Shown piece by piece: positions 24,946 to 53,454 of a stretch of DNA of 64,000 bases. The notes beneath the pieces are model-generated. The model was not told the origin of the DNA and ran no database searches. It saw nothing but the letters and a program-made list of their open reading frames with translations. Source of the DNA: Patellaria atrata CBS 101060 (lineage: Eukaryota); NCBI GenBank assembly GCA_010093705.1, contig MU006102.1, positions 252,123-316,122 on the forward strand, given 5' to 3'. A program made the position numbers and the translations under genes. Positions within the stretch are counted from its first letter, which is position 1; each line of letters begins with the position of its first letter.

Positions 24946-25807
24946 CCGAAAACTGCACGCCATGGACGAGACTTTACACCCTTAGACATTCTGAGTATGG
25001 TCTAAGGGCCTTGATTGTACTATTTAATATTCCTTTCGCTCAAGGAGGTTATAATAACTGTTCCTGGGGAACAGTCATATCCTTTTATGAAAAGTTACTC
25101 GTCCGTCGACAGATAGACATCAGATGGCTACTCTCTTAGGGCGGGCGTTCGAAGATGTAATATTTCAGTGTCATTATTGGGTACAAAGCAGTTGAAATTA
25201 GGGGACGAAAAGCAGCGCCGTCAACATGCTCTTTCAGCAGCGTTCTGGTTTTCCGAAAAGGGCATCGCATGAAGTATGTTGGTTAGCATCGCTGGGATCT
25301 CTTTTTCTATTGTTTCCAATATCTACTCAATGGCCACTCTATGAGGCTTCATCTCTTTCCTTTGTTGGGCACGTTCGCTCTGGTTTTTGCTTTCGATACC
25401 AACGGATTGTGAAAAAGTCCGGTGTTTGCACAAAGACATTATTCTTATTGCATGTTCCTAGTGGAAAGGGGGTTTGGCTTTATTTAGATATTGCCAGGGG
25501 TGTTTACCCATATAATATATATTTGACTGAATTGGCTATCTTTGCAGATGAGAACCGCGTGTATTATACCTTTTGACTTGGAATTATTGCGCCTGTTGTA
25601 TAATACGGTACCTCCATAGAGTCAGCACTATGGGTGTATGGCATACTTGTGGCCTCTCAGTGTACCAAGTGTAGTACAGTACAGTGTAGCCTAGTAATTA
25701 GCCAAGGCAGGCCCCGAGTTTAGAATCAAAAACCGAGTATTAGCCGGCGATTCTACTATTGACGAAGGACAACAAGTTAAGGACCTATCTACGTGATGGT
25801 AGGAATA

Positions 25808-26302
25808 TGTTACGGCCACAAAGTGATAGGGATGCATCACTGGTGGGGGTAGCACCAGGCGACGGATCGGAACAACTAGGACGGAAGTTGAGGTCACGTG
25901 ACATGGCCAGTGTCCAGTGTTGGTCCAGTGTCCAGAGGTGGACAGAGGTGTTGGCCACTGACCACAGCTGGCCAGGGAAAATAAGACTGTGAAGAAGGAA
26001 TACTTAAGGACGCTCCTTTACGCATGTATTTAGATTCTTCGTAGTTATTCTTACCATCAATCTTACGCATAGATTTGGATGTTACGGTTTTAAACTTGGC
26101 TTCACTTGTTACGCTGTTTCCATACAGTACGTCTTGTCTCATTGAGAGCATTACCTGAAGTCAAGGAGTCAGCAAGTTGTGTCGACAACTTGAAGTGCCT
26201 TTGTTATACGAATCCTATCACTTGCCAAACCTACCCTAGTGGTTGACCACGTTAAGTGAGAAGCCAGGCGCGTTTCTAGACTTATCCTGTCCTGTCTCGA
26301 TG
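25808..26302 (+). mobile_element. Solo-LTR-like unit, copy 1 (inverted relative to copies 2-4, 3' end truncated)
   Basis: Starts TGTTACGGCCACA and is colinear with the reverse complement of copies 2-4 (e.g. gaatacttaaggacgctcctttacgcatgtatttagattcttc). Homology stops about 20 bp before the expected GTAACA end. Confidence 0.85.
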
Positions 26303-26426
26303 ACCGACGTTAATCCATCGTGCCACTAACCACTGTTACGATCGTTGAGATCCAGATCGTGACACAAACAGGGCTTGGCAAGATAGCGTTGGAGTTGAAC
26401 GAGAATTTGACTATGGAGAATGTGTT

Positions 26427-26950
26427 TGTTACAACGGGAGTCTATACTTATCGAGACAGAACAAGACAAGTCTAGAAACGCGCCAGGATTTTCACTAACG
26501 TGATCTTCCTCCACGACGAGGTAGGTTTCGTTAGTGATAGGAGAGCGTCGACGTCTAGGCACTTCGAGTTAACGAAATAACTCGCTGACTCCTTAACTCA
26601 CTTTGTCTTCTCTATGGTTTGGTAATGTAGAGACAAGGTTCACTGCACTAACACAATGAGACAAAGGCCAGTTAAGTCAAAACCGTAACATCCAATATAG
26701 TTGGTAGGACTAAATGGTAAGAAGAATTACGAAGAATCTAAATACATGCGTAAAGGAGTGTCCTTAAGTATTCCTTCTCCGAGTCCTATTTTATATGTTT
26801 GGACGTGTTGGACGGAGAACCCCTTCTGCGTCCACTGCGTCAAGATCACGTGACCCCTGTGTCACTGTTCTTTCCCGTAGTTGTACCGTGTGGCCCTTCT
26901 CCGTCCCCCACTTGTCAACTACATGCTTTTCACAACTTGTGGCCGTAACA
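26427..26950 (-). mobile_element. Solo-LTR-like unit, copy 2 (complete, 524 bp, 5-bp TSD GTGTT)
   Basis: Termini TGTTAC...GTAACA. GTGTT flanks both sides (26422-26426 and 26951-26955). Confidence 0.92.
26430..26740 (-). ncRNA. Candidate conserved structured RNA in the R/U5-like part of the repeat (also in copies 1, 3 and 4)
   Basis: Compensatory substitutions in several helices across the four copies (see findings). Transcription is not shown. Confidence 0.5.
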
Positions 26951-26951
26951 G

Positions 26952-27456
26952 TGTTACAACGGGAGTCTATACTTATCAAGACGGAACGAGATAAGTCTAG
27001 AAACGCGCCAGGCTTCTCACTAATGTGATCAACCTCAAGGTAGGTCCCGTTAATGATAGGAGGTCGTGTGAGTTAGGCACTTCAAGTTAACGATATAACT
27101 TGCTGACTCCTTAATCCTTTGGGCAAGGCTCACAACTAGAGACAAAGCGTACTGTATGGAAACAGCGTGACAAAGTAGAGTTAAGTCGTAGACCGTAACA
27201 TCCAATCTTATAATAAGATATATTGGTAAGAAGAACTACAAAGAATCTAAATACATGCGTAAAGGAGCGTCCTTAAAGTATTTCTTCTTCACAGTCCCAT
27301 TTCCTGTTGGTCGTTTGGTCGTCTGGTCGTTTCTCACGACCGAACGACCGAACGACCAGATCACGTGACCCCTGGTCACTCGATCTGGTCCGCAGTTTTT
27401 CCGAGTGGTCCCCCTCATTCACCGTCTGTGTCCTTTTACAACTTATGGCCGTAACA
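26952..27456 (-). mobile_element. Solo-LTR-like unit, copy 3 (complete, 505 bp)
   Basis: TGTTACAACGGGAGTCTAT...TGGCCGTAACA, colinear with copy 2. No matching TSD. Confidence 0.9.
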
Positions 27457-28031
27457 ACTTCTCTAAGCTGGAACTAGATAGGTATAAACACGCGCAAGGT
27501 TTCTCACAGACGAGAGACCTCCTTCTAGGAAGGGTTAGGTTTCCGCTTCGTGATAGAACGTGTAAAGGTTGTACTTCAGGTTGACGATACAACTTGCTTC
27601 CCCTTAACTCTCTCTCAAGGGCTCCACAGTAGAGATAAGTGATACTGTACGAACACAGTATGACAAGGGTGAGTTAAGTCAAAGATCGTAACATCCAATT
27701 TAGATGGTAAGAAGAAATACGAAGAATCTAAATACATACGCAAAGGAGCGTCCTTGAGTATTCCTTCTCCGAGTCCTGTTCTGAGTGTTTGGACGTGTTG
27801 GCCGTCAATCCTAACATCCTTCTTCCTACGACCATCGCGTCCAACTCTCCTGGTCGCGGTGGACGTCTTTCTTGGCGCTATGGTTTCTGCGTCCACTGCG
27901 TTCATTGCGTCCATTGCGTCCACGTCACGTGACCCTCGTGGGCACTGACTTTCCTCCGTGGTTGTGCCGAGTGGTCCCTCTCTTTCCCCCACTCGTCGAC
28001 TTGCATGTCCTTACAACTTGTGGCCGTAACA
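27457..28031 (-). mobile_element. Solo-LTR-like unit, copy 4 (most diverged, about 19 bp missing at the junction with copy 3)
   Basis: Ends TGGCCGTAACA at 28031 and shares the GTAACATCCAA, GAAGAATCTAAATACAT and TCACGTGACC blocks. Confidence 0.88.
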
Positions 28032-28200
28032 GTTAATAGTATTATAATTAAATTAATTAATTGTTAAGAATGTAATAGAGTTATTATATACTTAATTCTT
28101 TTCGCGGTATTAACTTATATAGAAACTAAATAACGTTTGAATTCCACTATCTTAACCTCGATCTAATAAGTTTAGTACTCTATAGTGACAGTAGCTAATA
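28032..28200. other. AT/TpA-rich tract, possible RIP-degraded repeat relic
   Basis: ttaatagtattataattaaattaattaatt... begins immediately after the end of copy 4. Confidence 0.45.

Positions 28201-53409: not shown

Positions 53410-53454
<45 letters not shown>

Follow-up and report, generated by a model that had tools for sequence, protein, structure and literature searches.

Conserved base pairing in four LTR-like units of a Patellaria atrata contig is probably a retrotransposon leader structure

Contig MU006102.1 of Patellaria atrata CBS 101060 holds four diverged LTR-like units within a little over 2 kb, and short stems inside them appear to have kept their pairing while their letters changed. 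This raises the question of whether the units carry a new kind of structured RNA or a signal of a kind already known from retroelements. We analysed the 64,000 nucleotides around them (the window, meaning that whole stretch) and we believe, with a probability of roughly 60%, that the conserved stems make up a cis-acting structure, the R-U5 leader of an LTR retrotransposon, which is an element of a known kind, rather than a new kind of RNA.

The layout of the units, which we call c1 to c4, and of the conserved blocks outside the paired domain is as follows.

25808..26301, plus strand: c1, an LTR-like unit that starts TGTTACGGCCA and lacks its last ~23 nt
26302-26426: an unrelated tail that replaces the missing end of c1
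26427..26951, minus strand: c2, a complete LTR-like unit, TGTTACGGCCA...CCCGTTGTAACA
26952..27458, minus strand: c3, a complete LTR-like unit, with one base (26951) between its end and the start of c2
27459..28033, minus strand: c4, an LTR-like unit with its 3' end cut exactly at the start of c3 (loose end at 27457 in the related-contig alignment)
25892..25901, plus strand: GGTCACGTGA, a conserved motif with a CACGTG E-box, in the variable and presumed U3 part upstream; 26846-26855, 27361-27370 and 27925-27934 in the other copies
25990..26055, plus strand: near-invariant 66-nt block, 88-95.5% identical between copies; 26716-26781, 27225-27291 and 27706-27771 on the minus strand

One unit (c1) thus lies on the plus strand and three (c2, c3, c4) follow each other head to tail on the minus strand. 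The termini are TG...CA with short terminal inverted repeats, which read TGTTAC...GTAACA in c2 and c3 and are present at the 5' end only in c1 and c4. The outer flanks, TTAAC upstream of c4 and AACAC downstream of c2, do not match, and the units abut or are truncated. Because no target-site duplication was seen at the four units, and no internal gag-pol region, PBS or PPT in the window, LTR identity and orientation are read from architecture alone; a Pfam search of the 28 longest reading frames of the window gave no retroelement domain. Within the 66-nt block we found the candidate TATA-like box TACTTAAG of the first-pass annotation (26003-26010), an AAGGA-NNN-TCCTT hairpin and, 29 nt downstream of TACTTAAG, a conserved TATTTAG (26032-26038), while AATAAA is absent from the paired domain. 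The upstream part of the units is variable, apart from the conserved CACGTG and short repeats.

The units belong to a family that the source genome carries in highly repeated form. In two runs, probably of DNA, 1002 and 683 contig pieces aligned at a likeness of at least 80%, and the summed depth at 26024-26266 was ~500 times that of the flanks; such depth should not be read as copy number. A 22-mer from the invariant block, scanned for as an exact pattern, gave no loci in viral contigs and none in metagenome contigs, and a two-motif pattern from the paired domain also found none in metagenome contigs. The same 22-mer hit two loci in prokaryote genome contigs, both of them chance matches in which the likeness spans just 20-27 nt. 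In literature full text, four 10-14-mers of the LTR gave only unrelated primer matches for the 10-mers and none for the 14-mers. The best explanation is that the four units are solo or rearranged copies, from different subfamilies, of a highly repeated fungal LTR-retrotransposon family. They would be the LTRs of a gag-pol element, the better-conserved downstream half of each is presumably R-U5, and the region is probably transcribed on the TGTTACGGCCA strand.

The helices lie in that downstream half. Coordinates are given for c1 unless stated otherwise.

26077..26297, plus strand (alignment columns 100-345): paired domain; 26454-26693 (c2), 26979-27203 (c3) and 27466-27696 (c4), all on the minus strand
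26095..26165, plus strand: stem B, long-range, in which CTTGGCTTC (26095-26103) pairs with GAAGTCAAG (26157-26165); 26592-26676, 27110-27185 and 27603-27678 in the other copies
26113-26128, plus strand: CUGU-N6-ACAG hairpin, enclosed by stem B
26166..26283, plus strand: nested long-range stems, including GAGUC/GACUU (26166-26170 with 26279-26283)
26173..26192, plus strand: hairpin A, a 7-bp stem with a 6-nt loop and two doubly changed pairs; 26565-26584, 27083-27102 and 27577-27596 in the other copies
26195-26199 with 26267-26271, plus strand: nested long-range stem GUGCC/GGCGC
26218..26259, plus strand: stem C, TCACTT.../...AAGTGA, with a variable hairpin on top

The first-pass annotation had pointed to these stems by eye, and most of them are there. 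Hairpin A reads exactly as it was quoted at all four sites, with A-T/G-C swaps at two stem positions and one mismatch in c4. Stem B can be drawn in all four copies, with 9 bp including one G·T in c1, 7 in c2, 8 in c4 and 5+3 on either side of a mismatch in c3, and its position 4 changes from G-C to A-T. Stem C and the CUGU-N6-ACAG hairpin were also found at their given places, whereas a further stem, acttatc/gataagt, is readable in c2 and c3 and not in c1 and c4, which lack that end. Three double changes in the nested stems are carried by c4. In the consensus model, hairpin A is helix 6, stem B corresponds to helices 2 and 3, and the nested stems are helices 5 and 7. Towards its 3' side the fold becomes ambiguous: stem C competes both with helices 9 and 10 of the consensus and with a local TCAC/GTGA hairpin. 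The invariant GGATGTTACGG, which lies at the domain's 5' edge, pairs either with the U5 end (helix 1 of the model) or with the terminal GTAACA (in the c2 and c3 folds), and the invariant GGAUGUUACGG at the same edge repeats the 8 bases with which the LTR itself begins.

All covariation tests were run on four sequences only, which is too few for an R-scape-type test. The copies have pairwise identities of 65.0-78.1% in the paired domain, so that 22-35% of positions differ. With a fixed model of 53 pairs in 10 helices on a MAFFT alignment, 92.8% of 209 cells are paired, and both sides have changed in 9 of the 53 pairs, compared with 3.3±1.2 in shuffles (0 of 500 reach nine) and 1-2 in six slid controls. 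When the fold was predicted anew after permuting the variable columns, the observed 10 compensatory pairs stood against a null of 3.49±1.85 (0/300) and the consensus energy of -31.0 kcal/mol against -15.21±3.08 (0/300). Across four MAFFT modes, the energy was reached by 0 of 150 permutations in each, and the compensatory count by 0, 1, 11 and 0 of 150. Double changes are not confined to hairpin A, as they also occur in helices 2, 5, 7 and 9, whose arms are 55-125 nt apart. Where copies in the window have a wobble or a mismatch (26099, 27579 and 27572), most related contigs have the Watson-Crick letter in all three cases. The shuffle, permutation and alignment tests support the claim that pairing in several helices was kept despite sequence change, by selection or at least by non-random retention.

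Thermodynamic stability limits this evidence. Single-copy z-scores against dinucleotide shuffles on the sense strand were +0.14, -2.37, +0.2 and -0.02, so three of the four copies are no stabler than shuffled sequence. Single-copy minimum free energies (MFEs) were -53.8, -72.3, -53.9 and -56.9 kcal/mol, while the shared structure has -37.6, -27.4, -37.5 and, in c4, -2.1 kcal/mol, so that the consensus structure accounts for only 4-70% of the MFE of a given copy. The conservation of structure is about 0.5, from a consensus of -31 and single-copy MFEs averaging about -59. Selection on a fold of about 300 nt had been proposed earlier, and of this proposal the retention of pairing in several helices above chance stands, but a stable ~300-nt fold is not borne out.

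The strand had been argued from mismatches that become G-U pairs, and this argument fails: in a strand-neutral model built without G·U, which has 33 pairs and 132 cells, 5 cells are G·U and 6 are A·C. The consensus fold is better on the sense strand (-31.0 vs -22.5 kcal/mol antisense; z about -5.1 vs -3.1). In the 66-nt block all four variable paired columns stay paired via G·U on the sense strand only, and two G·U pairs inside helices, at columns 203-331 and 233-318, are invariant in all four copies.

These results leave several other readings to weigh against a leader structure. The covariation could have a mutational or DNA-level cause, with inverted repeats kept or renewed by template switching, in which one arm is copied from the other during DNA replication or reverse transcription, or with palindromic protein sites in LTR DNA, and no selection on RNA. 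Template switching can create and maintain hairpins, according to excerpts of bioRxiv 10.1101/2021.04.15.439925, which also describe double changes in the arms of short hairpins arising from one event, and hairpin A, short with a 6-nt loop, has the geometry that suits it. Watson-Crick covariation is moreover strand-symmetric, no strand emerges from counting G·U against A·C cells, and three of the four copies have no excess stability. Template switching of this sort is at odds with the doubly changed helices 2, 5, 7 and 9, since here stems with arms up to ~125 nt apart covary too, and four lineages with differences at 22-35% of positions have kept at least five helices. In a dimeric binding site one would expect conserved letters and not arms that co-vary, and on the opposite strand, or in a cruciform, the invariant G·U pairs would turn into C·A mismatches; we consider the DNA-level cause unlikely. 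With many helices possible and four related sequences, the multi-helix fold may also be mostly noise fitted around one or two real hairpins. Such over-fitting would sit well with the structure conservation of about 0.5, with a consensus fold that is nearly energy-less in c4, and with the one alignment mode in which 11 of 150 permutations reach the compensatory count; some of the double changes may be confined to dead copies, and taking the majority letter at 27508 among the relatives of c4 removes one. Set against this are the 0/300 permutations that reach the energy, the 0/300 that reach the compensatory count, and the fixed model's nine pairs, reached by 0/500 shuffles and standing above slid controls of 1-2. 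On the copy tree that the identities imply, hairpin A by itself requires three or more double events, and we judge it quite unlikely that chance produced the rest.

The conserved fold could instead be that of an antisense LTR transcript, for example one with a regulatory role, rather than of the genomic sense RNA. Antisense RNAs do occur over the 5' region of Ty1, as excerpts of PMC3681743 report, and the antisense consensus here is itself above its null (-22.54 vs -12.62±3.15 kcal/mol, 1/300; 9 compensatory pairs vs 4.15±1.98, 3/300), with c2 and c3 singly folding slightly better on that strand. Yet the sense consensus is 8.5 kcal/mol lower and has the larger z-score, G·U pairs conserved in the sense model turn into C·A on the antisense strand, and the four variable paired columns of the 66-nt block are paired via G·U on sense only, which makes an antisense origin improbable. 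The remaining question is whether the LTR carries a new functional RNA, be it a self-cleaving ribozyme, an IRES or a non-coding RNA module in its own right. It would have ~220-240 nt with covarying helices and no Rfam match, and three head-to-tail units would yield multimeric transcripts. No known ribozyme, tRNA-like or 5S model scores, though, the unpaired regions are poorly conserved with nothing like a catalytic core, stability is unremarkable, and the tandem units c2-c4 are 66-75% identical in the compared domain and so are not a recent multimer; we regard this as very improbable. A related idea, to which we give little credence, is that the ~220-240-nt domain is a self-contained RNA module common to hundreds of LTRs with different U3, either self-priming, with GGAUGUUACGG folding back on the U5 end, or acting as an unrecognised self-cleaving or translation-control RNA. 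If true, it would define a new family of RNAs, specific to one lineage of fungal retrotransposons, and its covariation could be tested.

Searches for known RNA families bear on the same point. Running cmscan with Rfam on the whole window gave no family at gathering score, and at E up to 10 the region 25700-28100 gave seven weak miRNA or snoRNA matches of 16.5-21.6 bits, far below thresholds; ARAGORN found no tRNA genes. The earlier suggestions of a ribozyme or an IRES are thus unsupported, and the analogies with retrozymes (hammerhead) and Cassandra (5S) find no matching RNA family. Retrozymes and Cassandra TRIMs resemble these units in having a structured RNA (hammerhead or 5S rRNA, respectively) inside LTR-like terminal repeats, but here there is no hammerhead, other ribozyme or 5S match and the units abut, with no short internal domain between repeats.

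A leader structure, our preferred reading, would account for the pattern in the following way. The downstream half of each unit bears a set of helices (the 7-bp hairpin, a 7-9-bp long-range stem around a small hairpin, and two or three nested long-range stems) whose pairing survived, through compensatory substitutions, changes at 22-35% of positions. The helices would be part of the cis-acting leader of the genomic RNA and would arrange its 5' end so that reverse transcription can start or strand transfer can take place, and/or so that the RNA can dimerise and be packaged by Gag. Selection on replicating master copies would keep the fold, and the copies in the window would be their decayed descendants. 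A function of the leader in replication or packaging is what we infer from this, and among the functions raised by the first-pass annotation, a packaging, dimerisation or replication signal of a retroelement is the best reading.

Among known systems, the closest in kind are the 5' TIPIRT domain of Ty1 and the leader of Ty3, which are likewise structured multi-helix regions at the genomic RNA's 5' end in a fungal LTR retrotransposon. Ty1 signals reach into GAG, whereas the helices in this window are wholly within the LTR. No sequence or model similarity to Ty1 or Ty3 and no Rfam hit links the two, and a like function here is putative. Retroviral R-U5 stem-loops, such as TAR, the poly(A) hairpin and the U5-IR stem, offer a second comparison, in another host and another element group. 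Excerpts of PMC5454406 and PMC4974528 describe structured cis-acting signals at the Ty1 5' terminus for packaging and for starting reverse transcription, and together with those of PMC7969010 they assign packaging, dimerisation and reverse transcription initiation to the Ty1/Ty3 region. In retroviruses, pairing maintains the hairpins of R/U5, and these account for the residual conservation of LTRs (excerpts of PMC3601003); here a long-range stem, helix 1 of the model, similarly brings the 5' part of the leader beside the U5 end. The same excerpts state that U3 is the least conserved part of LTRs and link residual conservation in long R regions to stem-loops; structured R/U5 is already a known source of LTR conservation. 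The self-priming leaders of the Tf1/sushi type (chromoviruses) are resembled in the pairing of GGATGTTACGG with the U5 end or the terminal GTAACA in the models. The defining trait of that type is a complementarity of the transcript's first ~11 nt to a PBS just outside the 5' LTR, and the window is without an internal region.

Confirmation would make this the structured leader, not described before, of a very abundant family of fungal LTR retrotransposons. Such a leader would aid annotation of the family, definition of R/U5 and orientation of LTRs, and would allow cis-acting replication signals to be compared beyond a few yeast models (Ty1, Ty3 and Tf1). Structured R-U5 leaders are expected in such elements and no new question is opened. 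Hundreds of genomic copies, once aligned, would give a clean and well-powered covariation test.

Two further candidates were rejected. An intron inside the LTR was considered from the alignment by eye, and after the candidate GT that follows CA (columns 149-152) the letters differ in each copy; the branch-like motif CACTAAC is found only in c2, with CATTAAC in c3 and none in c1 and c4. The loop of hairpin A is UAUCGU in most copies, and this majority loop is not self-complementary, so no kissing-loop dimer site is evident there, which is another difference from Ty1 and Ty3. By eye only, the same loop could form a 4-5-bp pairing with ACGGU/ACGAU at columns 107-111.

Four related LTR-like units of different subfamilies lie side by side in a 2.2-kb cluster between two genes, in a fungal window that is otherwise repeat-free and gene-dense. 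No retroelement domain turned up when its 28 longest reading frames were searched with Pfam; the matches are a Zn(2)-Cys(6) cluster, a 2EXR domain, GH47, Mediator Med20, PP4R3 and other genes usual in eukaryotes. A BLAST search of the full window with c1 as query matched these four units only.

Units and conserved elements of the cluster
c1: 25808-26301, plus strand; continued to 26426 by an unrelated tail
c2: 26951 to 26427, minus strand; head to tail with c3 and c4; complete
c3: 27458 to 26952, minus strand; head to tail with c2 and c4; complete
c4: 28033 to 27459, minus strand; head to tail with c2 and c3
CACGTG E-box inside GGTCACGTGA: 25892-25901, 26846-26855, 27361-27370, 27925-27934; conserved in all four upstream variable parts
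66-nt block: 25990-26055 and three equivalents; 88-95.5% identical across subfamilies that are otherwise, in the downstream 220-240 nt, only 65-78% identical
Internal GGATGTTACG(G/A), invariant: 26080-26087 (c1, plus strand); 26683-26690, 27193-27200 and 27686-27693 (minus strand)

The complete units run from TGTTACGGCCA to CCCGTTGTAACA, and these ends have the apparent signature of LTRs, TG...CA with short inverted repeats. The last ~23 nt are missing from c1 and c4; c4 stops ~22 nt short of its expected end, exactly at the c3 start (junction region 27444-27470), and past 27457 related contigs continue with different letters. At the other junction (26940-26960), a single C (26951) lies between the c3 end (...GTAACA) and the c2 start (TGTTACGG...). 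ARAGORN found no tRNA gene in the window. The clustering could mean that the site is a hotspot for integration, that elements inserted into LTR ends, or that the units were rearranged.

In the variable upstream part, presumably U3, the conserved GGTCACGTGA with its E-box is followed by short tandem or inverted repeats that differ by subfamily, such as a long palindrome in c3 (27306-27358) and 9-nt tandem repeats in c4 (27887-27923). The 66-nt block is predicted to fold as a nested hairpin, GAAGAAG...CTTCTTC around AAGGA-NNN-TCCTT, and may serve as the core promoter, mark where R begins, or do both. The internal GGATGTTACG(G/A) is a copy of the 8 bases with which the LTR itself begins (TGTTACGG) and is therefore complementary to its last bases (GTAACA); when c2 and c3 are folded singly, the terminal CCGTTGTAACA pairs with it.

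The LTR family is highly repeated. In two public runs of one sample (contigs, probably DNA), 1002 and 683 contig pieces match the stretch at 80% likeness or more. Summed word depth reaches ~270,000 over 26024-26266, compared with ~500 in flanking bins and in single contigs; this is not a copy number and is read only as highly repeated. Closer relatives of c1, c3 and c4 each occur elsewhere at differing depths, which argues for different subfamilies and not local duplication. The c1 tail (26302-26426, containing TGTTACGATCG) has no kinship to the other units and is mildly repeated, at ~10 times the depth of single contigs. Transitions make up most of the differences between window copies and related contigs (25700-28100, run X1) (C>T 55, G>A 48, T>C 47, A>G 33; each transversion 4-14), with no clear one-directional RIP-like bias.

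The first-pass annotation had proposed a conserved multi-helix RNA fold with compensatory changes inside the LTR-like repeats. The domain modelled here is the downstream part of each unit (c1: 26077-26297), presumably R-U5. On the plain MAFFT alignment of the four copies, RNAalifold predicted 66 pairs, 8 with double changes. Our model of this domain has 53 pairs in 10 helices, with 92.8% of 209 cells paired. Both sides had changed in 9 of the 53 pairs, compared with 3.3±1.2 on shuffling the 3' letters (0/500) and 1-2 in six slid controls. Because this model came from the same data it was scored on, we ran a second test in which only variable, ungapped columns were permuted and the fold was re-predicted every time. 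The observed energy was -31.0 against -15.21±3.08, with 10 compensatory pairs against 3.49±1.85 (0/300 for both). Across four MAFFT modes the energy was reached by 0/150 permutations in each, and the compensatory count was matched by 0, 1, 11 and 0 of 150. We conclude that the conserved pairing is real and non-random; over-fitting is one rival here, as all covariation results come from four sequences only.

The extent of the fold is another matter. Sense folding energies of c1, c3 and c4 are close to dinucleotide shuffles (z +0.14, +0.2, -0.02), and c2 alone is more stable (z -2.37). The shared structure gives -37.6, -27.4, -37.5 and -2.1 kcal/mol on c1 to c4, against MFEs of -53.8, -72.3, -53.9 and -56.9. 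Conservation thus extends to a handful of helices and not to a demonstrated global fold.

The annotation had correctly placed and spelled the 7-bp hairpin, the long-range stem, the TCACTT/AAGTGA stem and the CUGU-N6-ACAG hairpin. Two pairs of the 7-bp hairpin alternate A-U/G-C as claimed, and its one mismatch is private to c4: the pairing letter occurs at 27579 in 8/8 related contigs (among the variants listed, 40 of 305). The long-range stem enters the consensus fold only once a 2-column gap in c1 is shifted; after that shift its length is 9 bp in c1, 7 in c2, 5+3 in c3 and 8 in c4, and its fourth pair changes from G-C to A-U. The acttatc/gataagt stem is present in c2 and c3 and absent from the other copies. 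In the 3' part, the TCACTT/AAGTGA stem and consensus helices 9 and 10 are mutually exclusive, and four sequences do not discriminate between them.

A conserved fold could instead be carried by an antisense transcript; a coarser column shuffle gave z = -3.3 for sense and -2.6 for antisense. The earlier argument for the RNA strand from G-U pairs failed: with G·U forbidden during prediction (33 pairs, 132 cells), there were 5 G·U cells against 6 A·C and 2 other non-Watson-Crick cells, plus 1 gap cell. Other grounds favour sense: its consensus energy is better, helices 5 and 7 contain invariant G·U pairs, the 66-nt block keeps its pairing at each of the four variable paired columns through G·U on the sense strand, and the variable end that resembles U3 is upstream on this strand.

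We think it somewhat probable (about 0.6) that the domain is a structured leader acting in cis in this family of retrotransposons, maintained by selection on the replicating master copies; its function would be that of such leaders. We favour this reading because the position is R-U5-like, the domain is closed in the model by an invariant GGAUGUUACGG pairing with the U5 end, it is common to subfamilies with differing U3 parts, and there are published precedents. PMC3601003 gives R and U5 stem-loops as a known cause of LTR conservation and describes priming by a 5' hairpin in some fungal chromoviruses. At the Ty1 5' terminus, the signals for packaging, dimerisation and reverse-transcription initiation are described as structured (PMC5454406, PMC4974528). 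Another rival is mutational or DNA-level upkeep of the pairing, for example by template switching (as described in 10.1101/2021.04.15.439925).

A new functional RNA is the remaining rival to the leader reading. The structure is absent from Rfam, but its kind, the structured leader of an LTR, is already known. No Rfam family reached its gathering score in the 64 kb (cmscan), so that, with no tRNA from ARAGORN, a hammerhead (retrozyme), a 5S (Cassandra) and any other described ribozyme are rejected. At E up to 10, 25700-28100 gave only 7 weak miRNA/snoRNA matches (16.5-21.6 bits); the c3 palindrome accounts for the five at 27243-27371, and the remaining pair of matches is at 26774-26820 and 27355-27456. 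Elsewhere in the window, 53410-53453 is an uninterrupted run of 44 G.
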